A stretch of 64,000 nt of DNA from Escherichia coli (GTDB lineage: Bacteria; Pseudomonadota; Gammaproteobacteria; Enterobacterales; Enterobacteriaceae), in NCBI RefSeq assembly GCF_044647545.1, contig NZ_CP172818.1. One strand, written 5' to 3'. The position numbers were made by a program, and so were the translations under genes. The notes beneath the pieces are model-generated. The model was not told where the DNA came from and made no database searches. It was given only the letters and a program-made list of their open reading frames with translations. Below, one piece after another: positions 15,346-37,197 of the stretch (the stretch's first letter is position 1; each line of letters begins with the position of its first letter).

Positions 15346-16719
<1,374 letters not shown>

Positions 16720-19852: not shown

Positions 19853-21103
19853 ATGGAAAGTAAAGTAGTTGTTCCGGCACAAGGCAAGAAGATCACCCTG
19901 CAAAACGGCAAACTCAACGTTCCTGAAAATCCGATTATCCCTTACATTGAAGGTGATGGAATCGGTGTAGATGTAACCCCAGCCATGCTGAAAGTGGTCG
20001 ACGCTGCAGTCGAGAAAGCCTATAAAGGCGAGCGTAAAATCTCCTGGATGGAAATTTACACCGGTGAAAAATCCACACAGGTTTATGGTCAGGATGTCTG
20101 GCTACCTGCTGAAACCCTTGATCTGATTCGTGAATATCGCGTTGCCATCAAAGGCCCGCTGACCACTCCGGTTGGTGGTGGTATTCGCTCTCTCAACGTT
20201 GCTCTGCGCCAGGAACTGGATCTCTACATCTGCCTGCGTCCGGTACGTTACTATCAGGGCACTCCAAGCCCGGTTAAACACCCTGAACTGACCGATATGG
20301 TTATCTTCCGTGAAAACTCGGAAGACATTTATGCGGGTATCGAATGGAAAGCAGACTCTGCCGACGCTGAGAAAGTGATTAAATTCCTGCGTGAAGAGAT
20401 GGGCGTGAAGAAAATTCGCTTCCCGGAACATTGCGGCATCGGTATTAAGCCGTGTTCTGAAGAAGGCACCAAACGTCTGGTTCGTGCAGCGATCGAATAC
20501 GCAATTGCTAACGATCGTGACTCTGTGACCCTGGTGCACAAAGGCAACATCATGAAGTTCACCGAAGGCGCGTTTAAAGACTGGGGCTACCAGCTGGCGC
20601 GTGAAGAGTTTGGCGGTGAACTGATCGACGGCGGCCCGTGGCTGAAAGTTAAAAACCCGAACACCGGCAAAGAGATCGTCATTAAAGACGTGATTGCTGA
20701 TGCATTCCTGCAACAGATCCTGCTGCGTCCGGCTGAATATGATGTTATCGCCTGTATGAACCTGAACGGTGACTACATTTCTGACGCCCTGGCAGCGCAG
20801 GTTGGCGGTATCGGTATCGCCCCTGGCGCAAACATCGGTGACGAATGCGCCCTGTTTGAAGCCACCCACGGTACTGCGCCGAAATATGCCGGTCAGGACA
20901 AAGTAAACCCAGGCTCTATTATTCTCTCCGCTGAGATGATGTTACGCCATATGGGCTGGACTGAAGCCGCAGACTTGATTGTTAAAGGTATGGAAGGCGC
21001 AATCAACGCCAAGACTGTAACCTATGACTTCGAACGTCTGATGGAAGGCGCTAAACTGCTGAAATGTTCAGAGTTTGGTGACGCGATCATCAAGAATATG
21101 TAA
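19853..21103 (+). CDS. icd: isocitrate dehydrogenase (NADP)
   Basis: 416-aa ORF; the last ~53 codons lie inside the prophage-borne duplicated segment. Confidence 0.95.
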
Positions 21104-21154
21104 TTACTACATGTGTTAAATATTGTAACGGGCGTATAACACGCCCGTTGTTTT
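20943..21154 (+). repeat. attL-side copy of the 212-bp direct duplication (icd 3' end plus terminator)
   Basis: Appears identical to 36118..36329 by visual alignment at a constant offset of 15175 bp. Confidence 0.85.
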
Positions 21155-21156
21155 TT
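21127..21156 (+). terminator. rho-independent terminator of icd
   Basis: Stem aacgggcg / cgcccgtt with 7-nt loop followed by TTTTTT. Confidence 0.8.
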
Positions 21157-21518
21157 GTTAGGCTGCTAACGGTTATCAAAATTTTATCAAAAAAAGTTAT
21201 CAAAACCCCTCGGTAGTTTTGGGGTAGGCTGGCCGGTCAGGTGGTAGTTCTACTACTAGTCTCCCACATAGATATTCCTTAGCTTTTTATTATTGCTGGC
21301 GGACGCTCGTTAATATTTAAGGTCTTCATTGATTAAGACATCCCCAAAGTTAGTTATGTATTCACTGTTATTAGGACAATTATGAATTACCACTCCTTAC
21401 ACCCGCTCAAATATTGTTAAATTGCCGGTTTTGTATCAACTACTCACCCGGGACTCGCCAGGGGACAGCCAACAGGCATTGGGTGCAATCACCTTAGCGT
21501 TCAGGTACATGCGGAATG

Positions 21519-21543
21519 TAAAAAAGGCCGCGAGCGCGGCCCC
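21519..21543 (-). terminator. rho-independent terminator downstream of ymfD
   Basis: Minus strand: GGCCGCGCTCGCGGCC hairpin followed by TTTTTT, 55 nt beyond the ymfD stop. Confidence 0.65.
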
Positions 21544-21596
21544 TTCACATACATCTTTAGTACTGAGACTGTTTAACCTAGGGAATTATTATCGTA

Positions 21597-22262
21597 TTAT
21601 ATTGCATTACAACTCCCAACAGTGACATATGAACTTCCTGCTTTACTCCACGACTTTAATATTTCAAGGCCATGTGAAGAACATATTTCTTGCACTGCGA
21701 GTTCATCGAGTAATCCATAGTAAGAAACACTTTTTGAATTTTTGTAAATGTATCCGTAAAGATGTTTTCTTCCTGTTTCGTATTTTTTGAAGTATGAGCT
21801 TTTATATTGATTTACAATAAGAGTCTCACCTCCTGATTTTAGTAATCTCTTGATGCTAAGAACTATTTTGTCGATTGTATCCCGACAAGGAACGGCAGAG
21901 AGAACATTAGAGCAAAGGATGAAATCGTAACCCCCAATTATTTTGTCGACATCCTCGAAAGCAACTGTATTTGCATTTTTATAATATCGTGGGACATAGT
22001 CAATAATTTTAGTTTTAATTCCTCTAATAATTTGCTCTCTTTCAAGTTGCCTTTTCGAGTCTAGAAAAGTAACTTCATCAAATTTACTGATTAATTCATC
22101 AGAATATCTAAGTTTTCCGCAGCCAAAATCAAGGGCGTGGCCATTTTTCTCAATGCTTCTAATATACTCGCAAAGATATCTAGAGGGCATCGTATGAGGT
22201 TTTGCTGCATTCTCTGAGCGAATATTAACTCCGTGCATATTATAGTTCAAAGCAAGTACCAT
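21597..22262 (-). CDS. ymfD: putative SAM-dependent methyltransferase (prophage cargo)
   Basis: 221-aa ORF; class I MTase motif I LDFGCGK; AT-rich codon usage; start abuts the ymfE stop. Confidence 0.75.
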   Translation of the reverse strand: MVLALNYNMHGVNIRSENAAKPHTMPSRYLCEYIRSIEKNGHALDFGCGKLRYSDELISKFDEVTFLDSKRQLEREQIIRGIKTKIIDYVPRYYKNANTVAFEDVDKIIGGYDFILCSNVLSAVPCRDTIDKIVLSIKRLLKSGGETLIVNQYKSSYFKKYETGRKHLYGYIYKNSKSVSYYGLLDELAVQEICSSHGLEILKSWSKAGSSYVTVGSCNAI

Positions 22263-22976
22263 TCAATTAATGTTATTTTTAGTGAAAAATTCTTTTATTT
22301 TATCGTCCGGGATTTTTCCGACTTGACTTTCAGTTCTGGGCTTAACTGTCAAAGCAAAGATAATACCACTCACTGAGAATGATAAAATTACAAAAAAGAA
22401 TAAAGACAGCAAAGAACCTTCAACATGAAAAATATCCATTTGTTTGCAAAAAAAGATTATTAGGAAGGAAATTAATGCAATTATCGAAAATTCAAAAAAT
22501 ATCCAAAAATAGTATACTTTATTCCAGAAGAGTTCAATATAATGTTTGTCTTCAATTTTTCTTACTTCAGGGTAATATAGATTGCTCATTACATTGTGAG
22601 CTTCATCTTTATTTAATTTTCTGTTGACTCCAGCTCTCCGTGATAACGGTTTTATAATTAGATGCTTATCCCAAAGATATCGCACCCGAAGTAGTTTGGC
22701 TGCATTGTTATGTAGGTCTAACGCACCGCTAATTAAATATGCAAAAATCGCAAAAGCACAAGGTAATATACCAAAAGATAGTGCCCAATTAATAAAGCTC
22801 TCATGATCTTTAATAGGTGGGACATACTTGGTTGGTAATGTTATTAAAGGGATGTATTCGTAAATAACTAGAAGTATGCAATATATTAGCGTATTTAAGA
22901 AAGTTGCTTTATGAAGTTTAGGCAACATTTCATTATAATTTTTGGGGGGTTCGAACATATTATTCACCTGAGTCAC
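22263..22976 (-). CDS. ymfE: multi-pass membrane protein (prophage cargo)
   Basis: 237-aa ORF with about 4 predicted hydrophobic helices; very AT-rich; first gene of a two-gene minus-strand operon with ymfD. Confidence 0.7.
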   Translation of the reverse strand: MTQVNNMFEPPKNYNEMLPKLHKATFLNTLIYCILLVIYEYIPLITLPTKYVPPIKDHESFINWALSFGILPCAFAIFAYLISGALDLHNNAAKLLRVRYLWDKHLIIKPLSRRAGVNRKLNKDEAHNVMSNLYYPEVRKIEDKHYIELFWNKVYYFWIFFEFSIIALISFLIIFFCKQMDIFHVEGSLLSLFFFVILSFSVSGIIFALTVKPRTESQVGKIPDDKIKEFFTKNNIN

Positions 22977-23162
22977 GCTTTAGGATAGTGTAATGGTAAT
23001 ATTTAATTAAGTGTCATTATATACTTTTCAGTAGGTTAGTTACAATTTTTTGTATCTGTTCAGGCTGACCTAGCTTCGCTGACAGACAATATTGTGATCA
23101 GTAGCACGTATCGAGGAGGAGTAGCGCTACAAATTTGACGCTGGGTGAGAATCTGAAATTGA

Positions 23163-23234
23163 TAGAAATGAAATAATGAAATAATGAAATGATGAAATGA
23201 TGAAATGATGAAATGATGAAATGATGAAATGATG
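23163..23234. repeat. tandem octamer repeat: (AAATAATG)x2 then (AAATGATG)x6
   Basis: Directly readable perfect 8-bp tandem array in the divergent intergenic region between ymfE and lit. Confidence 0.9.
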
Positions 23235-23424
23235 ACAGAGTGTCCAGTGGGCACGGATGGTGTCTTACGACATGCTTACCTTAATCGTTCCCAGTGTGCC
23301 TATAGCAGATATTCTAAACATGTCGATAATTCATTACGCATATAGTATCGAACATAGAAAAAACTGAAGATTCATCTTATTTTGTATATACTACCTAGCC
23401 CAACAATGTAGAGGTTAACGAAAA

Positions 23425-24318
23425 ATGCGCTCACCAATTTGTCATCTTTTCTCAGCAATTAATTCATCACCATTTAAGATTGCACCAGAGAAGGAGCAAG
23501 ATCTTAAAACGATAGTTGACGACAAAAAAATTATAATTTCAGTTGTGAGTGAACCTGGTTTTAATATCCGAGTCAGGAAGAATGAGAGTAATAATTCACA
23601 TGAAATAGTTCTAACAGTAGCTTCACTTGAATATATTTGGGCATTTTCCAATTTCTTTTGGGTTTTTACGCAAGAGTACTCCAAATCTCAGAAAAATAAT
23701 GATGAGCACTTTGATTTAACAGGAAAAAATAGGCTTAAAAAGTCTGATGAACTTCTTAAATGGGCAAGGAAAAACTTGCAAACAACAGGTTGCGAATCAT
23801 GGCCTAAAAAATGTCCCAAGCCAGAAGCATATTTACAAGGAAGCGAAGACTCACAAGTTGCTAGCGAGATATTTCTTTGTGCTATTGCTTGGATTCTTCA
23901 TCATGAAATAAGTCATGTTGTTTTACAGCATCCATTGGTCACTACAGCATTCTCCACTCAAGAGGAGCGTGAAGCAGATTCACATGCTACAAAATGGATA
24001 TTAGGCAACCTGTATGAATCCGCTCCTGAATTAAAGAAACGTGCACTTGGCATTGCTACGGCAGTGCTTTGTATACAAAGCTTAGAAGTTGAAAATTACT
24101 TCTGTTTACAAAATACACACCCAGCTGCATATGAGCGTATATATTCGAATATTTCATGCTACCCTGTCGGAAATGAAGAGTTGATTGAAGCTCTATGTAC
24201 AGTGATGCTTCAATATCTTTTCCATGGCAAAAATATCAATGTGAATCTAGATGGGGAGTCCTTTTCATCGATTTTAGGTGATCTTCTCTGTGATATTTCA
24301 CGTCTTACCAGTAACTGA
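23425..24318 (+). CDS. lit: Lit cell-death zinc metalloprotease (phage-exclusion protease targeting EF-Tu)
   Basis: 297-aa ORF with HEXXH motif in ILHHEISHVVLQH; AT-rich. Confidence 0.85.
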   Translation: MRSPICHLFSAINSSPFKIAPEKEQDLKTIVDDKKIIISVVSEPGFNIRVRKNESNNSHEIVLTVASLEYIWAFSNFFWVFTQEYSKSQKNNDEHFDLTGKNRLKKSDELLKWARKNLQTTGCESWPKKCPKPEAYLQGSEDSQVASEIFLCAIAWILHHEISHVVLQHPLVTTAFSTQEEREADSHATKWILGNLYESAPELKKRALGIATAVLCIQSLEVENYFCLQNTHPAAYERIYSNISCYPVGNEELIEALCTVMLQYLFHGKNINVNLDGESFSSILGDLLCDISRLTSN

Positions 24319-24408
24319 TATGGCTGTCCGCCGCTCGCTTAAAGTGGACTTTTTAGTTTTTATCATGTGCGGTGAGAAATTCAATGTGGCGTTGAGATGC
24401 TTAAAGGT

Positions 24409-25536
24409 TCACAACGCTACTTTGCTCCATCCTTTACCTCGATCATCATGATAACGATCGGTTTGTTGTTGTGTTTTATGACCAAGTAGTTTTTGTGTGT
24501 CTAACCCCTGTTCTTTATACAGACGTTCAGATAAAGACCTTTGCTCATGGAATGTCGCAGGTGAACCCTCTCCCCAGTCAATTCTTGCTAAATCTCTCGC
24601 TTTACTAAAATTCATCGTCAATGTATTGGCTTTAACCTGCGCTCCGCGCTCTGCTTGTGAAGTTGAACGAAAAAAATGCACTAAGTATGCACTGACTGCA
24701 TAGTCACGGCAGCGGGCTACTACATCGCGTAAACTCCAGTTAATCGCATTGAGGCGAAGAGAAAGAGGAATTGCGATTTTGCTCCCGGTCTTTTCCTGAA
24801 TGACATGAAGATGATCATCCCAAATATCGCTAAATTTCATACGCGAAATATCACCTAACCGCTGACCAGTAACCAGCGCTAACAGCATGGCATTTCCCAT
24901 GTAACGATGAGTAGCGTCTGCGATATCGAAGATTTTTTTCCATTCTTCAAGGCTCAGCCGTTGTCGGGTAATTTTTCTTCTTGGTTGTTTAGTGGCTAAT
25001 GCTGGGTTATAGCCAGGAGGTACTTCTCCGTAGTGCTGCGCCTCTTTGAAAACATCAATCAGGACGGAGCGAACTACTTGTGCCATTCTTGGCCGCCCAG
25101 CGGCGATATACTCATCAAGCAATTGTGCTATATCTCTGACATCAACGGCTGAGATCAACTTCATTCCTGCTCGTTCTCTGAGCAAGGATACTGGTTTAGC
25201 TTTTTGTTTATAGGTGTTGAGTCTTATATCACCACTTTTAAGCCTGTCATCCTGGATCGCTTGATAGCGATCTAACCAGGTTGACGTTGTGATAGCCTTT
25301 CCTTTGCTGGTTGCGATCCTGTCACTGATAGCCAGAATCTGCCGGGTTCTTTGTTCAGCCAGGCGAGTGTTGGCCTCAGTGGCAATAGCGATAGCTTCAG
25401 CTTCGTTTGTTCCCAAAGCATGGAATTTTCCTGTCACTGGATGCTTATACCGCCAATAGACTTTATTTACCTTCCTACTATAAAGCGGATATAAGTTAGG
25501 GACTGAAACATTATTCTTACGCGGTCTGGCTGCCAT
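24409..25536 (-). CDS. intE: tyrosine integrase
   Basis: 375-aa ORF; C-terminal catalytic region with R..HxxR..Y (LLGHKTQQQTDRYHDD). Confidence 0.9.
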   Translation of the reverse strand: MAARPRKNNVSVPNLYPLYSRKVNKVYWRYKHPVTGKFHALGTNEAEAIAIATEANTRLAEQRTRQILAISDRIATSKGKAITTSTWLDRYQAIQDDRLKSGDIRLNTYKQKAKPVSLLRERAGMKLISAVDVRDIAQLLDEYIAAGRPRMAQVVRSVLIDVFKEAQHYGEVPPGYNPALATKQPRRKITRQRLSLEEWKKIFDIADATHRYMGNAMLLALVTGQRLGDISRMKFSDIWDDHLHVIQEKTGSKIAIPLSLRLNAINWSLRDVVARCRDYAVSAYLVHFFRSTSQAERGAQVKANTLTMNFSKARDLARIDWGEGSPATFHEQRSLSERLYKEQGLDTQKLLGHKTQQQTDRYHDDRGKGWSKVAL

Positions 25537-25762
25537 TACTCAAAATCCGTTGCAAAAGTAATGAGTCATTTTTCTTGATTACAGGTGTTACCAACTCCCC
25601 AACTAACTCGGCGTCCTCACGCACTCGCCATAACCGGCCTTGTTTCATGGCCGGTGGACAAAATAAATTCTGCTTAGCATAACGACGCAATGTGGACACA
25701 CTTGGAGGATTACTTCTGTATTTTTCAGCAGCCCATTCTTCAAGAGTTAACATTTGAAGCAT
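25517..25762 (-). CDS. xisE: excisionase (AlpA/Xis-like HTH)
   Basis: 81-aa ORF overlapping the int start; typical int-xis arrangement. Confidence 0.8.
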   Translation of the reverse strand: MLQMLTLEEWAAEKYRSNPPSVSTLRRYAKQNLFCPPAMKQGRLWRVREDAELVGELVTPVIKKNDSLLLQRILSNGSQTA

Positions 25763-26228
25763 ATGCGATCACCTTATTACTACACTAACTGCTTAGTCTC
25801 ATCATATCGACCCTGCAAGGCCGATTAGTTTCTCCACAAAACAGAGAAGAACACCTGCGGCGGCAGCCGCCCGGATGGATTGGGTTATGAGCCCGTCGTC
25901 CGGTGATGCTCTTCTCTGTTTTGTAAAAAGGACGGTACCAGCCTGAAGCAAGGGTACAAACTGGTACCGCCAGGACTACACACAGCATAAAGTTGTGGTG
26001 CCGGGTGCCTCCCGGTGCCTGGCGAAGGTTGCACACCAGACGGGTGGGTATCCACAGAAGGTCGACTGTCAGCCTCAACCTTAACCCGCGTGCGCTGAGC
26101 CGCATTCACCACAACGCTAAGGATTCTCTTTGGTTGAAAATACTTAGCTGTTATGTGCCTGTCTTTTCACCACTTCAGGCTCGGTGGTATGCTGGAGTTC
26201 TCACACAGCCAGCAAGCAAGGAAACTTA

Positions 26229-26570
26229 ATGAACCAGTTTTATGTTCACGTTCGTCTATTTGAAGACACAGCCGAACAGACCAAAAAATTTGAAGAATTA
26301 ATGCTTAACTTTCTGTACCAGAAAACAGTTAAAGAGTCTGACGATAGCTGCTGCAGACTGATTCCAGAGGGATATATCCTCAAAAGTACAATGAACTGCC
26401 AACAAATCCTTGATCAAACATTTTCAATTGCTAACAGTGCCGGTGTTGACGCAAATATATTTGTCTGTAAATTTGAACAAAGCGCATGCTTACTTCCGTC
26501 TGCTTCCTTAGTTGGTAACGATTTCGTTCATTACGATCTTACGCCTAAGCCCATCAAGCTCGATTCTTAA
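26229..26570 (+). CDS. ymfI: prophage protein of unknown function
   Basis: Start MNQFYVHVRLF gives 113 aa; no recognisable motif. Confidence 0.55.
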   Translation: MNQFYVHVRLFEDTAEQTKKFEELMLNFLYQKTVKESDDSCCRLIPEGYILKSTMNCQQILDQTFSIANSAGVDANIFVCKFEQSACLLPSASLVGNDFVHYDLTPKPIKLDS

Positions 26571-26816
26571 AGCCTTAACCATTGTGTCGTGATAAACACG
26601 GCTCACCTTCTCTCCATTGCATGGCAGAGGGGTGAGTGTGTTAGCCATGAAATTCATGAACTCGGTTCGACCAGGGGCTTGCGCCCCGCAAGTCTTTAAT
26701 GCCTGTTTTGCTAACAAAATGCGGGCCTCAGTGCCTGCATTTGGCTCTATCTGCTGCAAACGTTTAGCGTCTTCCAGCAACAATGCGATCACATGCTTCA
26801 AATTCTGCTCATTCAT
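26508..26816 (-). CDS. ymfJ: prophage protein of unknown function
   Basis: 102-aa ORF downstream of a strong promoter-like element. Confidence 0.6.
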   Translation of the reverse strand: MNEQNLKHVIALLLEDAKRLQQIEPNAGTEARILLAKQALKTCGAQAPGRTEFMNFMANTLTPLPCNGEKVSRVYHDTMVKALRIELDGLRRKIVMNEIVTN

Positions 26817-26922
26817 CTATTCTCTCCACTGAAATCATCCGCTAACGAATCATCCCGGTCTTCGTACGTACCGGGCGGGCTACTTCGTGGGCGTCCTGCC
26901 TGTTTGTTGTTTCTCTTGGGTA

Positions 26923-26951
26923 CATTATGTATCTCAAAGGTACATTGTCAA
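26923..26951 (-). promoter_or_regulatory. sigma70-like promoter for ymfJ with overlapping GTACC operator half-sites
   Basis: Minus strand TTGACA, 17-nt spacer, ATAATG; tGTACC motifs overlap both hexamers. Confidence 0.5.
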
Positions 26952-26952
26952 G

Positions 26953-26978
26953 TATAAAAAAACCTGCCGAAGCAGGTT
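26953..26978 (-). terminator. rho-independent terminator of cohE
   Basis: Minus strand AACCTGC-ttcg-GCAGGTT followed by TTTTTTT, 13 nt after the cohE stop. Confidence 0.75.
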
Positions 26979-26990
26979 CATAAACATTGA

Positions 26991-27665
26991 TTAGGCTTTG
27001 ATTTTGTATCTTCTTGGTTTTCCTGAGAAAATCACAGTACCAATTATAGAGCAATTACCGTTGATCTTAATGTAAGGCTCAGGCCAGTTTGGGTTTAACG
27101 CTTTGAGATAACGCTGTGTCCCATCTTCTATCAACCTTTTGAAGGTGGTTTCACCTGTATCGTGCATCAATGCAATAACGTCGTCACCGTGGCAGGCAGG
27201 TACTTCAGGATCGACAAAAATCATGTCTCCCGGGCGGTACTCATCAATCATTGAATCACCTATTACCCGCAAGATATAAGTCATTTCCCCACAGGGTACA
27301 GGGCAGGGATACGTTTCTGCTGTGCTCAAATCAACCTCAGAATATCCAACTTCTTTCCATGCTCCGGCCTGTACCCATGATATGACAGGGACTAATGTGA
27401 TTTGTTTATTAGTGATTGAAACATCAGGTTTTTTTGTGATGTTCGTTGTCTGGTGTTCTTGATCGAGCCATCCTACAGGCAGGTCGAAACATTTTTCGAT
27501 GTGTCGTGCCATGCTGTCACCGATATTTTTAGTAGCACCATCTCCCATAAACCTGCTGGTCTGGGTTGGCTCGCGATCAATCATAGTGGCAAAGGAAGAA
27601 TTCCCGCCAACACCATCTCTCAGTTTTCTGGCGTTAGACCGCCGGATGTCATGGATTGTTTTCAT
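26991..27665 (-). CDS. cohE: CI-like prophage repressor (HTH plus LexA-type S24 peptidase domain)
   Basis: 224-aa ORF; C-terminal VIGDSMIDEYRPGDMIFVDPE self-cleavage domain; divergent from cro-like gene. Confidence 0.85.
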   Translation of the reverse strand: MKTIHDIRRSNARKLRDGVGGNSSFATMIDREPTQTSRFMGDGATKNIGDSMARHIEKCFDLPVGWLDQEHQTTNITKKPDVSITNKQITLVPVISWVQAGAWKEVGYSEVDLSTAETYPCPVPCGEMTYILRVIGDSMIDEYRPGDMIFVDPEVPACHGDDVIALMHDTGETTFKRLIEDGTQRYLKALNPNWPEPYIKINGNCSIIGTVIFSGKPRRYKIKA

Positions 27666-27680
27666 AACGAAATTAAAACC

Positions 27681-27701
27681 CTTGTACCGTTAAGGTACAA
27701 G
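27681..27701. promoter_or_regulatory. operator palindrome CTTGTACC-gttaa-GGTACAAG between cohE and croE
   Basis: Perfect 8-bp inverted repeat with 5-bp spacer; related half-sites ATGTACACC/GGTACAT at 27731..27750. Confidence 0.6.
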
Positions 27702-27705
27702 TATC

Positions 27706-27734
27706 TTGAAGGTTCATTTCAATCATGTAATATG
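27706..27734 (+). promoter_or_regulatory. candidate croE promoter
   Basis: TTGAAG, 16-17 nt spacer, TAATAT, then GGAGG SD at 27741..27745. Confidence 0.4.
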
Positions 27735-27755
27735 TACACCGGAGGTACATATTGT

Positions 27756-27956
27756 ATGAAAGCGTATTGGGACTCTTTAACCAAAGAACAGCAGGGCGAG
27801 TTGGCCGGAAAAGTTGGCTCAACACCTGGCTACTTACGGCTGGTTTTCAATGGCTATAAAAAAGCCAGTTTTGTGCTGGCTAAAAAACTTGAGCAATACA
27901 CATCAGGTGCAATTACGAAATCTGACTTAAGACCGGATATCTATCCGAAAGATTAG
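27756..27956 (+). CDS. croE: Cro-like regulator
   Basis: ATG 27756 (MKAYWDSLTKEQQ) gives 66 aa; GGAGG 11 nt upstream; divergent from cohE. Confidence 0.75.
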   Translation: MKAYWDSLTKEQQGELAGKVGSTPGYLRLVFNGYKKASFVLAKKLEQYTSGAITKSDLRPDIYPKD

Positions 27957-27987
27957 CAGAACACTTTCAATTTTTAACCACAGAACG

Positions 27988-28554
27988 ATGAGGCTAATCG
28001 TGGGTAAGCATCACTGGAAAATAGAAAAACAGCCTGAGTGGTACGTGAAAGCTGTCAGAAAAACTATCGCGGCGTTGCCGAGTGGTTACGCTGAAGCGGC
28101 TGACTGGCTCGATGTAACAGAAAACGCTTTATTCAACCGCCTTCGTGCAGATGGCGATCAGATTTTCCCGCTGGGATGGGCAATGGTTTTACAGCGTGCT
28201 GGTGGCACTCACTTCATTGCTGATGCTGTGGCGCAGTCTGCAAATGGCGTCTTTGTGTCTCTTCCTGACGTCGAGGATGTGGACAACGCCGATATTAACC
28301 AGCGTCTGCTGGAAGTCATTGAACAGATCGGCAGTTATTCAAAACAGATTCGTTCAGCAATCGAAGACGGTGTAGTGGAACCGCATGAGAAGACAGCAAT
28401 TAACGACGAGCTGTATCTCTCAATTTCGAAGCTGCAGGAGCATGCAGCACTTGTCTACAAAATTTTTTGCATTTCAGAAAGTAACGCCCGCGAGTGTGCA
28501 GCTCCGGGCGTCGTGGCGTCGATTGCTTCTGGTTGTGGAGAAACTAACGCATGA
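27988..28554 (+). CDS. ymfL: prophage regulatory protein (CII-like family)
   Basis: 188-aa ORF immediately downstream of croE, early-region position. Confidence 0.6.
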
Positions 28555-28889
28555 ACAGTTTAACAACACACTACCGTCGCTCGCAACTGATTGCACTTCC
28601 TGTACCGGGTGGAAAAGCGAAGGTGGAGTATTGCTATGCAGTGAATGTACCAGGTGACAGGGAAATTGTAACCCACAGCTTTGCAGAGTGGGCTGTGGGT
28701 GATTTCAACCGGCAGAAGGAGACAGTCCTTTGCGACAAGTTAACCGCTGGTTCAAAGATCACTACGGAGTGCCCGTCAGAGTCATTCGTTGGGAGCCGGA
28801 AACACAACGGGTTATCTACCTCCGTGAAGGCTATGAACATGAATGCTTCAGTCCGGTCGAACAGTTTCGTCGTAAATTCAGGGAAATAG
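28551..28889 (+). CDS. ymfM: prophage protein of unknown function
   Basis: 112-aa ORF overlapping the ymfL stop. Confidence 0.55.
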
Positions 28890-28898
28890 AGGTCGGTC

Positions 28899-30266
28899 AT
28901 GAGCACTAAATTAACCGGCTATGTATGGGATGGTTGCGCTGCATCAGGCATGAAGTTATCCAGCGTGGCAATTATGGCCCGCCTGGCTGATTTCAGTAAT
29001 GACGAAGGTGTGTGCTGGCCATCAATTGAAACCATTGCCCGTCAGATTGGCGCGGGGATGAGTACCGTCAGAACGGCTATCGCACGGCTGGAAGCAGAAG
29101 GCTGGTTAACGCGTAAGGCGCGTCGCCAGGGTGATGGTTCATCACCCCACTGTGCGGTGGTGGATGAATATCACGAGCACGCCACCGATGCGCTTTATAC
29201 CACGATGCTTACCGGGATGGGGGCGCGACGTCAGCCACTGATGTGGGCCATCACCACCGCCGGGTACAACATTGAGGGGCCGTGCTACGACAAGCGGCGG
29301 GAAGTTATCGAGATGCTCAACGGTTCGGTACCCAACGATGAACTGTTCGGGATCATCTATACCGTTGACGAAGGCGATGACTGGACCGACCCGCAGGTGC
29401 TGGAAAAAGCCAACCCGAATATTGGCGTGTCGGTTTATCGCGAATTTTTGTTAAGTCAGCAGCAGCGTGCGAAAAATAACGCCCGTCTGGCAAACGTCTT
29501 TAAAACAAAACACCTCAATATCTGGGTGTCGGCGCGTTCGGCGTATTTCAACCTGGTGAGCTGGCAGAGCTGCGAGGATAAATCACTGACCCTTGAGCAG
29601 TTCGAGGGGCAGCCGTGCATTCTGGCCTTTGACCTGGCGCGTAAGCTGGATATGAACAGCATGGCGCGACTTTATACCCGCGAGATTGACGGTAAAACGC
29701 ATTACTACAGTGTGGCCCCGCGTTTCTGGGTACCGTATGACACGGTGTACAGCGTCGAGAAAAATGAAGATCGCCGGACAGCCGAACGCTTTCAGAAATG
29801 GGTGGAAATGGGCGTTCTGACTGTTACCGCTGGTGCGGAGGTGGATTATCGCTACATCCTCGAGGAGGCCAAAGCGGCGAACAAAATCAGCCCGGTCAGT
29901 GAGTCACCCATCGACCCCTTCGGGGCGACCGGGCTGTCGCATGACCTTGCTGATGAAGACCTGAACCCCATCACCATCATTCAGAACTACACCAACATGT
30001 CCGATCCGATGAAAGAGCTGGAAGCGGCGATTGAATCGGGGCGCTTTCATCATGACGGCAATCCCATCATGACCTGGTGTATCGGCAACGTGGTCGGCAA
30101 AACCATTCCGGGTAACGATGATGTGGTGAAGCCTGTCAAGGAGCAGGCGGAAAACAAAATCGATGGTGCGGTTGCACTGATTATGGCGATTGGCAGAGCA
30201 ATGCTGTACGAGAAAGAAGACACGCTGTCTGACCACATTGAGTCCTATGGGATCCGCTCGCTTTAA
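28899..30266 (+). CDS. oweE: fusion ORF: replication-initiator-like winged-helix N-terminus joined to terminase large-subunit C-terminal region
   Basis: 455-aa ORF; N-terminal roughly 90 aa resemble phage replication initiators, the remainder resembles a terminase large subunit C-terminal domain. Confidence 0.65.
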
Positions 30267-30277
30267 CTGAGGTAATT

Positions 30278-30445
30278 ATGATCATGCTGATTCTCCGCCT
30301 CTGGTGGGCGGCGGTGCTTTTGCTGGCGTATGGTGCCGCTCATTTATCCCCCGGGGGTTTTGTTCCCGGGGCGTTGTGCCTGTTCTGGTCGTTGCTGGTG
30401 GCGCGAATCTGTTCGACACAGTCGTCTGTCGGCGGAGGTAAATAG
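30278..30445 (+). CDS. ymfR: small hydrophobic membrane peptide (55 aa)
   Basis: ATG 30278 to TAG 30445, below the ORF-track cut-off; two hydrophobic stretches ([33 protein letters not shown]). Confidence 0.4.
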
Positions 30446-30651
30446 TGTTCTTTTCGGGATTATTTCAACGAAAAAGCGACGCACCGGTGACCACGCCAGC
30501 AGAGCTGGCGGATGCCATCGGGTTGTCCTACGACACCTATACCGGAAAGCAGATCAGCAGCCAGCGGGCCATGCGACTGACGGCGGTTTTTTCCTGTGTC
30601 AGGGTGCTGGCAGAGTCGGTCGGGATGTTGCCTGCAATCTGTATCACCTGA
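30445..30651 (+). pseudogene. beeE: portal protein N-terminal fragment
   Basis: 68-aa ORF with portal-like N-terminus; downstream region has no continuous frame. Confidence 0.45.
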
Positions 30652-30841
30652 ACGGCAGCCTGAAACAGAGAGCCACGGCGAGCGTCTGCATAGCTGATCT
30701 CCACGCATCCCAATGGCTATATGACGCCGCAGGAGTTCTGGGAGCTGGTGGTCACCTGTCTGTGCCTGCGGGAAACTTTTACGCCTACAAAGTGAAAGCA
30801 TTTGGCGAAGTGGCTGAAACTGCTGCCCGTCGATCCCGGCT

Positions 30842-31633
30842 GTGTGGTATATGCGCTGGGAAGGTGTCAGCGATGGCCTGAAGGTGACCGCCGGGAGTGT
30901 TATTCAGCGCGATGACCTGGTGCAGTACACGACAACTGACGATGCAACCAGCTCCGGTGGTGTCCTGCGCGTGCCGATCACTTGCTCAACTACAGGCGCG
31001 GTCGGTAACGCTGACGACGGTACGGCATTAATCCTGGTCACGCCGGTGAATGGTCTGCCGTCTTCCGGTGTTGCAGATACCCTGACTGGCGGATTTGATA
31101 CTGAAGAGCTGGAAACGTGGCGCGCCCGCGTCATTGAGCGGTATTACTGGACGCCTCAGGGCGGGGCTGACGGGGACTATGTCGTCTGGGCTAAAGAAGT
31201 GTCAGGCATTACCCGTGCATGGACATACCGCCACTGGATGGGAACGGGGACTGTCGGTGTGATGATTGCCAGCAGTGACCTGATTAATCCCATTCCGGAA
31301 GAATCAACGGAAACGGCGGCAAGACAACACATTGAGCCACTGGCCCCGGTGGCAGGCTCTGATTTGTATGTATTCAGGCCGGTGGCGCATAAAGTGGATT
31401 TTCATATCCGCGTGACGCCGGACACACCGGAAATACGGGCTGCCATCACCGCGGAGTTGCGTTCGTTCCTGCTGCGTGATGGTTATCCGCAGGGAGAACT
31501 GAAGGTATCGCGTATCAGTGAGGCGATTTCCGGTGCGAACGGGGAATACAGCCATCAGTTGCTTGCACCGGCAGACAATATCTCCATTGCAAAAAATGAA
31601 CTGGCGGTTCTGGGGACGATTTCATGGACGTGA
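30842..31633 (+). CDS. jayE: baseplate J-like protein (possibly truncated)
   Basis: 263-aa ORF resembling the C-terminal portion of Mu gp47/P2 J baseplate proteins; precedes gp48-like gene. Confidence 0.6.
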
Positions 31634-32208
31634 CAAACGATGATTACATCCGCCTGTTATCGGCACTGTTGCCGCCCGGTCCTGCATGGTCAGCCAGCGA
31701 TCCGGCGATTGCCGGTGCGGCACCTTCATTAACCCGCGTTCATCAGCGTGCGGATGCCCTGATGCGGGAGCTGGATCCGCGCACCACCACTGAACTGATA
31801 AACCGCTGGGAGCGTCTGTGCGGTCTGCCGGATGAATGTATTCCCGCAGGGACACAGACCCTTCGCCAGCGTCAGCAACGGCTGGATGCGAAGGTTAATC
31901 TGGCGGGCGGCATCAATGAGGATTTTTACCTTGCACAGCTTGCTGCCCTGGGCAGACCAGACGCCACTATCACGCGATACGATAAAAGCACGTTCACCTG
32001 CTCATCGGCCTGTACTGACGCAGTGAATGCGCCGGAATGGCGGTATTACTGGCAGGTCAACATGCCAGCCGCCACCAACACCACCTGGATGACATGTGGC
32101 GATCCCTGTGATTCCGCACTGCGTATCTGGGGCGACACCGTTGTCGAGTGCGTGCTTAACAAACTCTGCCCTTCGCATACCTACGTAATTTTTAAATATC
32201 CGGAGTAA
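31624..32208 (+). CDS. ymfQ: tail protein (P2 I / Mu gp48-like)
   Basis: 194-aa ORF overlapping the jayE end and followed by the tail-fibre gene. Confidence 0.6.
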
Positions 32209-32211
32209 TCC

Positions 32212-32841
32212 ATGCATCGTATAGACACGAAAACCGCGCAGAAGGATAAGTTCGGCGCGGGTAAGAACGGTTTTACCCGTGGTAACCCCCAGACCGGCAC
32301 ACCTGCCACCGATCTGGATGATGACTACTTTGACATGTTGCAGGAAGAACTTTGTAGCGTGGTGGAGGCCTCCGGTGCCAGCCTGGAGAAAGGGCGGCAT
32401 GACCAGATGCTTACCGCACTTCGTGCGCTGCTGTTAAGCCGCAAGAATCCGTTTGGCGATATCAAATCGGATGGCACTGTGCAAACGGCTCTCGAAAACC
32501 TTAGTTTAGGAGAAGGAGCAAAACTCAATGCAGCAACGGCTACATTAGGACGCACCGGTTTCATAGCTATACCGGTTATGATTGGTGGTATTGAGCAATC
32601 AGTAATCATTCAGTGGGGGTGGAATGCCGCAAAAGCATCTGCCTCTGGGGGGGATGGAAATACAGTTGTATTCCCGGTTGCGTTTAATAATGCCTGTGTT
32701 GCCGTTGTTGCAAATTATGACAATGTCAGCGCACCTATCAATGCAGTGGCAACGGGGGGATATACAACCACTTCGTTTTTATTACGGTGCGCAGCTCAAA
32801 CGGGTAGTTATTACTATAACTGGATTGCTATTGGGTATTAA
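32212..32841 (+). CDS. stfP: side tail fibre protein (constant part plus currently expressed variable part)
   Basis: 209-aa ORF; Gly/Ala/Thr-rich fibre-like C-terminus; crossover site lies inside the ORF at 32489..32514. Confidence 0.7.
   Translation: MHRIDTKTAQKDKFGAGKNGFTRGNPQTGTPATDLDDDYFDMLQEELCSVVEASGASLEKGRHDQMLTALRALLLSRKNPFGDIKSDGTVQTALENLSLGEGAKLNAATATLGRTGFIAIPVMIGGIEQSVIIQWGWNAAKASASGGDGNTVVFPVAFNNACVAVVANYDNVSAPINAVATGGYTTTSFLLRCAAQTGSYYYNWIAIGY
32489..32514 (+). other. Gin/Hin/Pin-type 26-bp recombination site (left)
   Basis: CTCTCGAAAACC-TT-AGTTTAGGAGAA fits the half-site pattern TTnTCnnAAACC / GGTTTnnGAGAA. Confidence 0.7.
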
Positions 32842-32842
32842 G

Positions 32843-33319
32843 ATGAAAATATACTGTTGCTTAAATACCGTTGGTTTTTTTATGGATGGCTGTGGCGTCA
32901 TTCCGCCAGATTCTAAAGAAATAACGGCAGAACACTGGCAGTCATTATTAAAATCTCAAGCTGAAGGAGGCGTGATCGATTTTTCTGTTTTTCCTCCTTC
33001 TATTAAAGAGGTTATCCGTACTCATGATGATGAAGTCGCAGATGCGAACTTTCAAAAGCAGATGCTTATCTCTGATGCAACTGATTTTATCAATAGCAGA
33101 CAGTGGCAGGGTAAGGCTGCATTGGGAAGACTTAAAGAAGATGAGCTGAAACAATCTGATTTGTGGGCTGGATTATCTGGACGCACTGGCGCTGGTCGAT
33201 ACCGCCAGTGCGCCGGATCTGAATGGCCTACGCCTCCGGCAGTTCAGGCCAGTAAATATCCGGTACAGTGCTGGTATCCGTTGCCATCACCGCGTCAATG
33301 TAATCCAGCACGGCGTTAA
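32843..33319 (+). CDS. tfaP: tail fibre assembly protein
   Basis: ATG 32843 (MKIYCC) 2 nt after stfP; WPTPP motif near the C-terminus; the frame stays open to 33319 (158 aa) and overlaps convergent tfaE, so the true stop is uncertain. Confidence 0.55.
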   Translation: MKIYCCLNTVGFFMDGCGVIPPDSKEITAEHWQSLLKSQAEGGVIDFSVFPPSIKEVIRTHDDEVADANFQKQMLISDATDFINSRQWQGKAALGRLKEDELKQSDLWAGLSGRTGAGRYRQCAGSEWPTPPAVQASKYPVQCWYPLPSPRQCNPARR

Positions 33320-33830
33320 GTCGGGTGTTTTCTGTCTGCGTCAGCTTCCTCCCGGCCTGCAATTTCAGTTGAATCAGACTAATTGAAGCCATTGCAGTAT
33401 CAATCAGTGACTGGCGCTGTGCTTCTGCCGCTTCTATTGCGGCACCGTATTGTGCCTCGGTATCGGTTACCCATTTCTCACCATCCCATTTATCGTATGG
33501 TGTTAACGGAGCGATAGTGGTCATATTTTCAGGGTAATCCCCTGGCGCTGTGATTTCTTTTGGTTCTCCCGTTTCGGTGCTATAAACAATTTCACCGCGA
33601 TGGTCTGGCACATATTTCCACGAGTTCAAATCCGTTGAGCGGCAAATTGCATAACCCGTTTTATGTGTACCAGGTGCATCTAAACAAGAACATGCCGGGA
33701 TACCGACACCGACAGCAAGATATTCGGTTGATGTTGAGATATATTCCTGTGTCCCATTATCATAGTTATAAACGGTAATATCCCCTGCCTTTACCGCGAT
33801 CAGCGCATCATTTAATACAGCTCCACCCAT
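33228..33830 (-). CDS. tfaE: tail fibre assembly protein (alternate orientation)
   Basis: 200-aa ORF ending in the canonical Tfa motif DIYWPELPEA. Confidence 0.75.
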   Translation of the reverse strand: MGGAVLNDALIAVKAGDITVYNYDNGTQEYISTSTEYLAVGVGIPACSCLDAPGTHKTGYAICRSTDLNSWKYVPDHRGEIVYSTETGEPKEITAPGDYPENMTTIAPLTPYDKWDGEKWVTDTEAQYGAAIEAAEAQRQSLIDTAMASISLIQLKLQAGRKLTQTENTRLNAVLDYIDAVMATDTSTVPDIYWPELPEA

Positions 33831-34390
33831 TATGCAGCCCTCACGATATAATTAAATGAAATATTTCGTGGACGTGATTCGTTACCGAATTTATCTGAAC
33901 CATCAGTATTTCTCGCTGAATATGTTTGGAGGATTGTCCCTGATGATGGATTCGCATTATATTCATTTGTTCCTGCTGGATAGTATGACATTGCACTATT
34001 GTCATCTTTGAAAACAGCAGACATCAATCCATCACCACCACTTCCGTAAGCAGTTGTAAGAAATGACGGTGATCGAAAGAAAGACTATTTTGTGCCGAAA
34101 GTAAGGGAACGACCAGAATCTACCCCGCGCCCATCATCCCAGCCACGAATAAACTCACCACGTAAATCAGGCAATTTATTTGTCGGGTAAGCCTTCGCCA
34201 GTTTTGGATATTCAACGGCAGAAAAAGCCGCACCGTTGCATTTCAGCCAGCCAGTAGGCGGTGTGGCTGAAGGCCACGGAACAGGCACACCAACGGGTAA
34301 TGCCGAACCTTCTCCCAAACCAAGGTTTATGAAAATGCGGAATAAGCGGCAAATGGCATCATTCCTGCTTTTGTCAGGGAGAGCTACCAT
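33830..34390 (-). pseudogene. stfE: alternate tail-fibre variable segment with in-frame TAG
   Basis: Two same-frame ORFs (34085..34390 and 33830..34027) separated by an amber codon at 34085..34087; N-terminal part carries a tail-collar-like motif (PVGVPVPWPSATPPTGWLKCNG...LPDLRGEFIRGWDDGRG). Confidence 0.6.
34308..34333 (-). other. Gin/Hin/Pin-type 26-bp recombination site (right, inverted)
   Basis: Minus strand TTTTCATAAACC-TT-GGTTTGGGAGAA; same TT core as the left site; adjacent to pin. Confidence 0.7.
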
Positions 34391-34941
34391 GCTTATTGGC
34401 TATGTATGTGTGTCAACAAATGACCGAAACACAAATCTACAGCGTAATGCGCTGAACTGTGCAGGATGCGACTCATTTTTGAAGACAAGATAAGCGGTAC
34501 AAAGTCTGAAAGGCCGGGACTGAAAAAACTGCTCAGGACATTATCGGCAGGTGACACGCTGGTGGTCTGGAAACTGGACCGGCTGGGGCGTAGTATGCGG
34601 CATCTGGTCATTCTGGTTGAGGAGTTGCGCGAACGTGGCGTTAATTTTCGCAGCCTAACAGATGCTATTGATATCAGCACATTCGATGGGGCGTTTTTCT
34701 TTATGTGATGGGGGCCTTGGCTGAAATTGAGCGTGAACTGATTGTTGAACGAACAAAAGCTGGACTGGAAACTGCTCGTGCACAGGGACGAATTGGTGGA
34801 CGTCGTCCCAAACTTACACCAGAACAATGGGCACAAGCTGGACGATTAATTGCAGCAGGAACTCCTCGCCAGAAGGTGGCGATTATCTATGATGTTGGTG
34901 TGTCAACTTTGTATAAGAGGTTTCCTGCAGGGGATAAATAA
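34389..34941 (+). pseudogene. pinE: serine invertase Pin disrupted by two frameshifts
   Basis: Resolvase/invertase sequence spread over three frames: 34389..34493 (MLIGYVCVSTNDRNTNLQRNALNCAGC), 34466..34708 (GDTLVVWKLDRLGRSM) and 34705..34941 (C-terminal HTH); total span 553 bp is two bases short of a 555-bp intact frame. Confidence 0.7.
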
Positions 34942-35047
34942 AGTTAAAGACACTTTGTGTACAAAAGAAAGTAAAACAACAGCAACTTGTTGCAATTTTA
35001 TCAATAAAAGTAGTATTGTCGTGAAAAATTGATTAAAGATTAATATT

Positions 35048-35881
35048 ATGCATGTTTTTGATAATAATGGAATTGAACTGAAAGCTGAGTGTTCGATAGG
35101 TGAAGAGGATGGTGTTTATGGTCTAATCCTTGAGTCGTGGGGGCCGGGTGACAGAAACAAAGATTACAATATCGCTCTTGATTATATCATTGAACGGTTG
35201 GTTGATTCTGGTGTATCCCAAGTCGTAGTATATCTGGCGTCATCATCAGTCAGAAAACATATGCATTCTTTGGATGAAAGAAAAATCCATCCTGGTGAAT
35301 ATTTTACTTTGATTGGTAATAGCCCCCGCGATATACGCTTGAAGATGTGTGGTTATCAGGCTTATTTTAGTCGTACGGGGAGAAAGGAAATTCCTTCCGG
35401 CAATAGAACGAAACGAATATTGATAAATGTTCCAGGTATTTATAGTGACAGTTTTTGGGCGTCTATAATACGTGGAGAACTATCAGAGCTTTCACAGCCT
35501 ACAGATGATGAATCGCTTCTGAATATGAGGGTTAGTAAATTAATTAAGAAAACGTTGAGTCAACCCGAGGGCTCCAGGAAACCAGTTGAGGTAGAAAGAC
35601 TACAAAAAGTTTATGTCCGAGACCCGATGGTAAAAGCTTGGATTTTACAGCAAAGTAAAGGTATATGTGAAAACTGTGGTAAAAATGCTCCGTTTTATTT
35701 AAATGATGGAAACCCATATTTGGAAGTACATCATGTAATTCCCCTGTCTTCAGGTGGTGCTGATACAACAGATAACTGTGTTGCCCTTTGTCCGAATTGC
35801 CATAGAGAATTGCACTATAGTAAAAATGCAAAAGAACTAATCGAGATGCTTTACGTTAATATAAACCGATTACAGAAATAA
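35048..35881 (+). CDS. mcrA: HNH endonuclease McrA (restriction of modified DNA)
   Basis: 277-aa ORF; C-terminal HNH motif HHVIPLSSGGADTTDNCVALCPNCHRELH; AT-rich. Confidence 0.85.
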   Translation: MHVFDNNGIELKAECSIGEEDGVYGLILESWGPGDRNKDYNIALDYIIERLVDSGVSQVVVYLASSSVRKHMHSLDERKIHPGEYFTLIGNSPRDIRLKMCGYQAYFSRTGRKEIPSGNRTKRILINVPGIYSDSFWASIIRGELSELSQPTDDESLLNMRVSKLIKKTLSQPEGSRKPVEVERLQKVYVRDPMVKAWILQQSKGICENCGKNAPFYLNDGNPYLEVHHVIPLSSGGADTTDNCVALCPNCHRELHYSKNAKELIEMLYVNINRLQK

Positions 35882-36117
35882 AATTATTTATTAAAGTCAC
35901 ATTTAAGACGTAATACCCTACAGGGTAAAAATTTTCTCTGATCTTAACTTCTGCAAATGTTAACTGCTATTTTTATGCTAAAAATGGTTATCAAAACTCA
36001 AAAACACATGTTTATAATCAATGAGTTATAGAAATGCTAAGGGCTAATGAGTTATATGCAAATTAGTAAAATTATGTTGCTATGTCAGATAGTTACGATT
36101 TAGTCATCTAACTAATG

Positions 36118-36278
36118 TACGCCATATGGGCTGGACTGAAGCCGCAGACTTGATTGTTAAAGGTATGGAAGGCGCAATCAACGCCAAGACTGTAACCTAT
36201 GACTTCGAACGTCTGATGGAAGGCGCTAAACTGCTGAAATGTTCAGAGTTTGGTGACGCGATCATCAAGAATATGTAA
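36118..36278 (+). pseudogene. icdC: icd 3' fragment (last ~53 codons) left at attR
   Basis: Sequence appears identical to icd 20943..21103 but has no upstream coding continuation. Confidence 0.8.
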
Positions 36279-36329
36279 TTACTACATGTGTTAAATATTG
36301 TAACGGGCGTATAACACGCCCGTTGTTTT
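36118..36329 (+). repeat. attR-side copy of the 212-bp direct duplication
   Basis: Same sequence as 20943..21154, including the terminator hairpin. Confidence 0.85.
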
Positions 36330-36380
36330 ATTTATGTGGGTATTATTAATAGCACATTGAGCATATTTATATGAAGCCCA

Positions 36381-36704
36381 TTACTTGAGCCCATATGGGC
36401 ATATTTTTATAATGCAACTATTATGCAAACATTTATTTGTTATTTTGCTTTCTCCTGGAGGACACTCTTGACTGCTTTTGAGTAAACTCCATAAATCCTT
36501 GTTGAATGGTGCGATGTTATAAATAGTAATAGGATATTCTTTATCCTTAAGGATAATACCAGATTTAACCGGTGTAAATATCCTGCCAGGAGGAAGAAAT
36601 ATAGTGGATTGATACCAGATGATCATTTTCATATCACCCCATATGGCTGAAAAAGATATGCCGCATGTAGGTTGAATTACCGTGTCAATTACTATCCACT
36701 TCAT
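36381..36704 (-). CDS. iraM: anti-adaptor protein IraM (RssB inhibitor)
   Basis: 107-aa ORF in a strongly AT-rich islet with a long AT-rich upstream region. Confidence 0.75.
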
Positions 36705-37148
36705 TTGTTATGTCTTATCCCACGGTGCTTAATATAGTTCATTTGGATGTTCATTTCTTGATTTTGCATATGTGTATATTACTCCCAAAAAAATAAATTA
36801 ATTAAAAATTAATGTCATTATCTATATAAAACAAAATTTAAAGCAAGGAATCTCAATAGAGATTAAACAAAATGAGATTTAGTGAAAACATTAAATTATT
36901 CACTTCGTTTTAGATTTGTTTAGCTAAAATGTTATACATTCAAATGACTGAATATTCTGTAATTAAAACATAGCCTTTATGCTACTTTGAGCCAATTTGC
37001 TAAACATTATGGTTGGCCTTTTAATATAACGATAATGATGAATATAAGCATGACCTGAGAATAAGGTTTCAATTTTTTAGTTATATAAAAATGGTTAAAC
37101 CCGTTCCTGACTAAAATACATATAATCGGATGATGACTAAACCAAAAC

Positions 37149-37197
37149 ACATGTGCGTTAAGTATTGAAACGGGCGTATGGCACGCCCGTTGGTTTT
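37149..37197 (+). terminator. degenerate third copy of the icd 3'UTR/terminator (att-like remnant)
   Basis: acatgtgcgttaagtattgaaacgggcgtatggcacgcccgttggtttt matches the icd terminator region at roughly 85 percent; hairpin plus T-tract retained. Confidence 0.6.

Follow-up and report, generated by a model that had tools for sequence, protein, structure and literature searches.

Temperate phages related to SfIV (SfIV, SfII, SfI, SfV, vB_EcoM-720R4, and vB_EcoM-689R6) share with the defective prophage e14 of Escherichia coli K-12 the gene order around a replication initiator and a large terminase. Unlike e14, the SfIV-type phages carry these as two complete, separate genes ∼10 kb apart, with iterons within the initiator gene (gp41 of SfIV) and a Walker A motif in the terminase (gp02). 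In K-12 e14 both are represented by ymfN (b1149), in which, as Mehta, Casjens, and Krishnaswamy reportedly described in BMC Microbiol in 2004, a replication protein is fused to a terminase. RefSeq places two pseudogenes under the K-12 open reading frame (ORF), a [quoted passage not shown] and a “terminase large subunit, missing N-terminus,” and the locus was given the new annotation oweE and aaaE (PMC6018989; PMC4444293). Here we examine a 455-amino-acid (aa) ORF at positions 28899..30266 of a 64,000-nucleotide (nt) stretch of the E. coli contig NZ_CP172818.1 (hereafter the window), which contains an e14-type defective prophage in icd. The ORF is K-12 ymfN, now the pseudogenes oweE and aaaE, and as a deletion scar it is already known. 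We consider it very probable that it arose in frame through an illegitimate deletion of the microhomology type in a temperate, SfIV/SfV-like phage integrated at icd, the event that yielded the defective e14. Its left breakpoint also appears to be one of two recurrent deletion endpoints in this phage family, and this is the part of the analysis that we consider worth following up.

One reading frame from two phage genes

The ORF runs on the + strand from an ATG start at 28899 to 30266 (1368 nt, 455 aa) and contains both peptides quoted in a first-pass annotation of the window, which had proposed that a replication initiator and a terminase are joined here in a single frame. The ORF listing, Pfam, and PHROGs agree on this point, as do the K-12 annotation and the literature: the ORF is real and has two parts. 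At the N-terminus, HTH_36 matches residues 23–70 (Pfam, E 7e-11), and PHROGs families labeled “primosomal protein” or “replication initiation O-like” (including phrog_11896) match residues 1–78 over profile positions 1–78 of 225 (E 3e-50). The winged-helix domain that had been proposed for the first ∼90 aa is indeed present, but the initiator part is only 78 aa long. This fragment (28899..29132, + strand; oweE) comprises codons 1–78 of 313 and retains the winged helix of the SfIV gp41-type, iteron-binding initiators; the C-terminal domain (residues 79–313) and the iterons are absent.

The rest of the ORF (29133..30266, + strand; aaaE) is the C-terminal region of a large terminase, as the annotation had suggested, and corresponds to residues 201–577 of 577. 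Residues 79–455 match the large terminase family phrog_9 over positions 317–676 of 812 (E 1e-130), and the top match overall for residues 78–455, the large terminase of 118970_sal3, is 99.7% identical at the protein level. TerL_nuclease (PF20441) covers residues 146–436 with profile positions 4–284 of 286 (E 3e-33), so the RNase-H-like nuclease domain is complete. TerL_ATPase (PF03354), in contrast, matches residues 78–134 with only profile positions 118–174 of 178, the last third of the domain, vs. positions 1–174 in the intact SfIV terminase. The fragment keeps Walker B (AVVDE, residues 86–90 of the chimera) and does not contain a full ATPase domain; the Walker A-like PRKNGKS, at terminase residues ∼116–122, falls within the absent residues 1–199. 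A distant alignment with the large terminase of HK97 (PDB 6z6d; E 4.5e-18) pairs residues 79–434 of the chimera with residues 153–493 of that enzyme, from Walker B (AVVDE vs. ILDE) through the nuclease domain to a conserved ...IDG.VA... motif, and the first ∼150 residues of the HK97 enzyme have no counterpart in the chimera.

Both parental proteins exist intact in complete phages. Residues 1–79 are 97.5–98.7% identical to the replication protein of SfIV, SfII, vB_EcoM-720R4, vB_EcoM-689R6, and SKA5 (98.7% in four of the five), and residues 78–455 (78–444 in SKA5) are 96.5–99.5% identical to the separate large terminase of the same phages. The five complete phages hold two separate genes rather than one intact family spanning both halves, and the gap between these genes in complete phages is ∼9.8–10.2 kb. 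For SfIV, residues 1–78 of the chimera correspond to residues 1–78 of gp41, a replication or “primosomal” protein of 313 aa (98.7% identity, also over residues 1–79), and residues 78–455 to residues 200–577 of gp02, the large terminase of 577 aa (97.6%).

Alignment with the complete SfIV genome placed window positions 26841–29132 on SfIV 28389–30676 and positions 29130–30849 on SfIV 1156–2893. The two blocks overlap by the GGT of codon 78 (junction 1; 29130..29132, + strand), which in a three-way alignment is common to both parents (SfIV 30676 and 1156). The parental sequences at this point read ...GCCAGGGT|AACC in the initiator gene and ...CCCAGGT|GATGG in the terminase gene, and initiator codons 1–78 are joined at GGT to large-terminase codon 200/201. 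The chimera is composed of initiator residues 1–77, a glycine common to both proteins, and terminase residues 201–577. The breakpoint had been predicted at 29150..29190, 20–60 nt downstream of where the SfIV alignment puts it.

DNA lost at the two junctions

Deletion 1, at the junction within the ORF, spans 10,237 bp on the SfIV scale (∼9.8 kb in vB_EcoM-720R4). It removed the last 235 codons of the initiator gene (with the iterons), PerC-like, nin-type, and HNH genes, a Q-like antiterminator, the holin, endolysin, and spanins, a cos-proximal HNH gene, the small terminase, and terminase residues 1–199. SfIV 30677–39758 and 1–1155 (together including HNH, cos, and terS) have no counterpart in the window, and neither a small-terminase gene nor cos lies adjacent to the terminase fragment. 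The first-pass annotation had read the ORF as the scar of a deletion that took both the lysis and the head-morphogenesis regions from between the two halves; the scar and the loss of the lysis region are borne out, but the head genes disappeared in a second deletion farther downstream.

Within the intact initiator gene, at least six 15-nt repeats form an array (SfIV 30731–30892), which begins 55 nt past the breakpoint and encodes a SDSDPSKSDASKS linker. The iteron pattern GTCARAWTYTGAC had no matches in the window, where homology to gp41 ends at codon 78. In phage lambda, the origin (ori) is located inside gene O, and by analogy the iteron array presumably is the origin of the SfIV-type phages.

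Deletion 2 extends from the portal gene to the baseplate J gene and measures 12,751 bp on the SfIV scale. It took the remainder of the portal gene along with those for the protease, capsid, connectors, sheath, tube, tape measure, and baseplate hub, up to codon ∼90 of baseplate J. At junction 2 (30846..30849, + strand), the portal gene at SfIV 2893 and the baseplate J gene at SfIV 15645 have GGTA in common, and window positions 30846–32523 align with SfIV 15645–17322. Remnants of both genes had been proposed downstream of the chimera, and both are there. The portal N-terminal remnant, the equivalent of beeE (30445..30849, + strand; SfIV 2486–2893), aligns with roughly codons 1–136 of the portal gene in SfIV; because of its frameshifts, the ORF of 68 aa stops at 30651 and was not detected by Pfam. 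Five private 1-nt indels (net −3) lie at short homopolymers between 30631 and 30817, and because the core genome is almost free of indels relative to the closest relative, they look like real decay rather than sequencing error. The C-terminal remnant of baseplate J, equivalent to jayE (30850..31633, + strand), lacks ∼90 N-terminal codons compared with SfIV gp18 (352 aa); the ORF at 30842..31633 matches the Baseplate_J profile at positions 34–255 of 255 (E 1e-47).

Deletion 1, if it occurred as a single event, would have abolished replication, late-gene activation, lysis, and packaging at once and locked the element in the chromosome. The fusion itself is the last gene of a rightward early operon that includes ymfM, which is reported to be SOS-inducible (bioRxiv 10.1101/2020.11.19.390815). 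Standing at the end of this SOS-derepressible cro-ymfL-ymfM operon, it probably is expressed as RNA and protein once the operon is induced. It is not expected to initiate replication, because the origin and the C-terminal domain are missing, nor to package DNA, because Walker A, the small terminase, and cos are missing. We infer that it is best treated as the pseudogene pair oweE/aaaE.

A recurrent breakpoint in the initiator gene

Comparison with related prophages indicates that the left breakpoint in e14 is not random and is a recurrent, nucleotide-precise deletion endpoint in this phage family. This endpoint, here called site B (...GCCAGGG^TAACCG, after codon 78; 29127–29137, + strand, SfIV 30673–30682), was seen in protein clusters, DNA junctions, and IMG/VR samples. 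A second, related endpoint, site A (...ACGGC^TATCGC, at initiator nt ∼181, after codon 60; 29077–29083, + strand, SfIV 30623–30627), seen in clusters and DNA junctions, is intact in the window. A protein search with residues 1–78 returned more than 100 clusters. Among the 120 sequences read, ∼45 clusters were identical through ...RKARRQG(78) and then continued into unrelated tails, which included the ends of YmfQ, terminase, DUF968, RusA, Q, small terminase, gpW, and orfA of the insertion sequence IS3, as well as the initiator's own C-terminus; numerous tails were out of frame. At least 17 further clusters diverged after residue 60 (...STVRTA), and several of these codon-60 fusions share their right-hand partner with a codon-78 fusion, from which they differ by the exact loss of codons 61–78 (54 nt).

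At the DNA level, right-hand partners included terminase codon ∼268 in a locus with intact portal and capsid genes (L010), a tail fibre gene, giving a 1047-aa ORF in a complete genome (L011), the end of ymfQ in an e14 at icd (L012), the last 50 terminase codons (L013), and the small terminase (L014). Junctions at site A were found in four loci (L136, L137, L184, and L207). We also sampled IMG/VR, picking loci solely by an exact flanking 24–30-mer and inspecting the next 120 nt. With the first anchor, 154 of ∼165 loci were intact and all 10 breaks fell either at nt 181 of the initiator gene (2 loci) or at nt 234–240 (8 loci with seven junction types). From the opposite side, 202 of 205 loci were intact and all three breaks were at nt 231–234, one of them of the type found in K-12 CPS-53. 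Both anchors together placed 11 of 13 breaks at nt 231–240, two at nt 181, and none elsewhere.

Site B has at least 12 right-hand partners, and three left-hand partners in other prophages. At every junction with a known parent, the partner has 1–10 nt in common with GGGTAACCG. Among the partner sites, +1 is T in 14 of 14, +2 is A in 13 of 14, +4 is C in 12 of 14, and −1 is a purine in 10 of 11; +4 is conserved even where +3 differs, which exceeds the expectation for contiguous microhomology. Other endpoints are re-used as well. The portal endpoint of e14, GTGTGGTA^CC, recurs in L136 (around 1297–1300) with SfIV 15111 instead of 15645 as right partner, and terminase 1355–59, SfIV 8494–99, and a site upstream of RusA (32401–04) are also re-used. 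For 15 of 36 deletion endpoints, a motif TA(N)CCG is close by, vs. a background of 9.5%, an exploratory figure obtained post hoc from the same data.

Several candidate causes were set aside. The BstEII-type sequence GGTNACC occurs 20 times in SfIV and so does not explain a unique site. Likeness of the endpoints to the E. coli type I-E repeat of clustered regularly interspaced short palindromic repeats (CRISPR) gave a weak, nonspecific enrichment that was equal for the other repeat half and for a shuffled control. Adjacent deletion mediated by an insertion sequence fails in that none is present at the junctions and one partner is an internal point of IS3 orfA. We saw no similarity of the hot spot to the Pin crossover sites (32496–32516 and 34308–34328), the SfIV cos ends, or the e14 att regions, and found no promoter or terminator there; a local single-strand hairpin was not significant (z = −1.4), and Rfam returned chance hits in the iterons only.

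It is quite possible, although we stop short of calling it probable, that the e14 junction came from a nucleotide-precise hot spot for breakage or recombination, acting on both sides, in the initiator gene of e14/SfV/CPS-53-type prophages, at which some site-specific process repeatedly makes a DNA end that is then joined to a weakly similar GGR^TAnCSG kilobases away, deleting the origin and the lytic and structural genes and thereby grounding such prophages time after time. The DNA end might originate in a nick or a double-strand break, at a start or stall point linked to the origin, or from a nuclease, a topoisomerase, or a recombinase. Our working guess is a site-specific end by the origin that would be repaired via microhomology-primed joining. 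Searches of the literature did not turn up any report of a hot spot for deletions in this initiator gene, and no account of a nucleotide-precise, two-sided hot spot of this kind is known to us.

History of the element and alternative readings

Of 5426 complete E. coli genomes, 282 carry junction 1; the matches listed are K-12 derivatives plus BS-01, in which e14 is more eroded and has the same two junctions. The chromosomal backbone of the window is 99.8–99.98% identical to that of ST648, which has an empty icd site, and its core is ∼2% from K-12. The prophage nevertheless shows no substitutions relative to K-12 e14 at 22–25, 27–28, and 35–36 kb. Because the element is identical to that of K-12 in such stretches on a backbone ∼2% apart, it must have moved between lineages already deleted.

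The 455-codon frame is kept in all three alleles (window, K-12, and BS-01), which are identical over the first 231 nt. In the terminase part they differ at 27–31 codons, with 86–97% of the differences synonymous; between the window and K-12, all 28 differences in the ORF lie in the terminase part (29156–30248), 24 synonymous and four not. At nearly every variable site, the alleles also occur in intact phages, in a mosaic pattern, the fusion alleles are as distant from one another as from intact terminases, and only ∼3 substitutions are private to the window allele. Given that the variants are common to intact phages, recombination with functional copies can explain the synonymous bias without selection on the fusion, and an argument for selection from that bias is unsupported. 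The simplest reading of these patterns is one old deletion, after which the terminase segment would have recombined with functional phage copies. A frameshift-truncated variant of the K-12 type (P0008) is present in public assemblies.

Some observations weigh against regarding the fusion as a plain scar. The 1368-nt ORF has neither an indel nor a stop in three diverged alleles, while ∼16 private indels lie in the 550 nt after the window ORF and pinE is frameshifted, with none inside the ORF; residual activity of the fusion is conceivable, its nuclease domain being 99.7% identical to the one in a functional phage terminase. The same observations speak for a domesticated gene under selection, in which a DNA-binding winged helix is tethered to an intact RNase-H-like terminase nuclease and might block the origins of related phages in a dominant-negative manner or serve as an SOS-made nuclease. 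Other in-frame fusions that retain the same 78 (or 79) N-terminal residues could be cited in its favor, namely P0005 (388 aa, joined to terminase residue ∼268), P0159, and, in WCHEC025943, the 1047-aa initiator::tail-fibre ORF. We nonetheless judge domestication very unlikely: with alleles shared with intact phages and so few private substitutions, the synonymous bias could have been inherited through recombination; the reading frame is lost in many of the fusions at the shared site, which points to a mechanistic rather than a protein-selected breakpoint; and the frameshifted P0008, the curated annotation as two pseudogenes, and the lack of any defence-family match for the chimera and its neighbors in PADLOC all argue the same way. 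A natural single-family protein or an assembly artefact, for which nothing speaks beyond the one uninterrupted frame, has a negligible chance of being correct and was rejected, given that the halves are separate genes ∼10 kb apart in every intact relative examined, that the terminase ATPase match begins at profile position 118, and that the same junction occurs in 282 complete genomes.

With the deletion scar as the preferred reading of the ORF, its breakpoint could still be a product of chance at a 3-nt microhomology and the hot spot a sampling artefact. The e14 junction shares GGT only, its crossover is offset by 1 nt, leftward, from the TA that serves most other events, and the query of the protein search itself ended at residue 78. 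The IMG/VR loci were, however, chosen by their flanks (∼165 and 205 loci), and 13 of 13 breaks fell at the two sites; together with the number and variety of right-hand partners at site B and the use of the same nucleotide as a right-hand endpoint in K-12 CPS-53, this makes chance an unlikely explanation.

The whole e14-type element, collinear with K-12 e14 at 98%, occupies 21155..36114, with ends set by comparison with the empty icd site of ST648, and the 3′ end of icd is duplicated at 20939–21154 and 36115–36330. Window positions 21998–37993 are collinear with K-12 e14 at 96–98% identity except that the invertible P segment is reversed, and lit, intE, xisE, cohE, croE, ymfL, ymfM, the P invertible segment, pin, and mcrA follow in K-12 order. 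A cohE/ymfK-type repressor with an S24 peptidase domain (26991..27665, − strand; “LexA family protein” in K-12) is divergent from the early rightward operon (27756..28909, + strand), which was delimited from the ORF listing, the K-12 annotation, phrog_1170, and phrog_1343. Upstream of the chimera, this operon consists of croE (27756..27956), the CII-like ymfL (27988..28554; Pfam Phage_CP76), ymfM (28551..28889), and a DUF4222 gene (28730..28909) that overlaps at its end the chimera's start codon, all on the + strand. Downstream, the K-12 order in RefSeq is ymfR, “phage portal protein, missing C-terminus,” “baseplate J, missing N-terminus,” and ymfQ. The ymfR-type small membrane-protein gene of the window (30278..30445, + strand), identified from relatives and PHROGs, encodes 55 aa (60 in K-12); compared with all relatives it has five small deletions (30295–30416, 15 nt in total) that preserve the start and end of the ORF and leave internal patches frame-shifted. 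The pinE invertase gene (34390–34941) is frameshifted at 34472, 34682, 34694, and 34703, and the P segment (32496–34328), which lies opposite to its K-12 orientation, is presumably frozen there.

Deletion-made fusion ORFs are common in this prophage family. Further in-frame fusions of this terminase in public assemblies (P0003, P0013, P0014, P0063, and P0046) have as partners the portal protein, the tail sheath, and the N-terminus of an N6-adenine methyltransferase, joined near the start of the nuclease domain. Outside the prophage, a 1.6-kb stretch in the ycgH autotransporter region (44372–45959) has no alignment to ST648, and ST648 carries between rluE and icd a 1.5-kb DUF1493/STM2901 insert (L009 1030–2516) that is absent from the window.

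The scar itself is a known, textbook case of a cryptic prophage and of low interest, beyond showing that a reading of raw sequence can recognize one. The prophage family is found in about 2000 of the 5426 complete E. coli genomes. If its members are indeed repeatedly inactivated at one or two nucleotides by the origin, prophage decay would be partly directed rather than random erosion, and the responsible activity, whether of the host, the phage, or linked to replication, should be identifiable by genetics.

Among described elements, K-12 e14 is the closest to the one studied here. It occupies the same icd site, has both junctions identical to the nucleotide, and encodes the same 455-aa frame; ymfN and the window ORF are 98.0% identical in DNA and differ at four amino acids, with no differences across junction 1 (28857–29155) or around junction 2. 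The window copy is unlike K-12 in its ST648-like backbone (phylogroup F type), whose close relatives have an empty icd site, in a different terminase allele mosaic, in private indels in ymfR, the portal remnant, and pinE, and in the opposite P segment. For the breakpoint, an analogy may be drawn with the Int-promoted “b” deletions of phage lambda, reportedly described by Parkinson, Davis, and others in 1971 as a nested set with one endpoint fixed at att and the others variable at weakly similar sequences; here the fixed point would lie in the initiator gene rather than at att, and no recombinase is implicated. A nearer counterpart is yfdO of the K-12 prophage CPS-53/KpLE1 (“missing N-terminus”), a member of the same initiator family that starts at SfIV 30676/30677, where the e14 fragment ends. 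It runs from codon 79 onward, and on its left a leftward deletion of 3.4 kb has brought it against the start of yfdP (L135 4984–5010; NZ_CP012868.1 about 2168070). Because the partners differ, yfdO is not the reciprocal product of the e14 event; a two-sided hot spot, if real, would explain why e14 and CPS-53 of K-12 hold complementary halves of one initiator gene.

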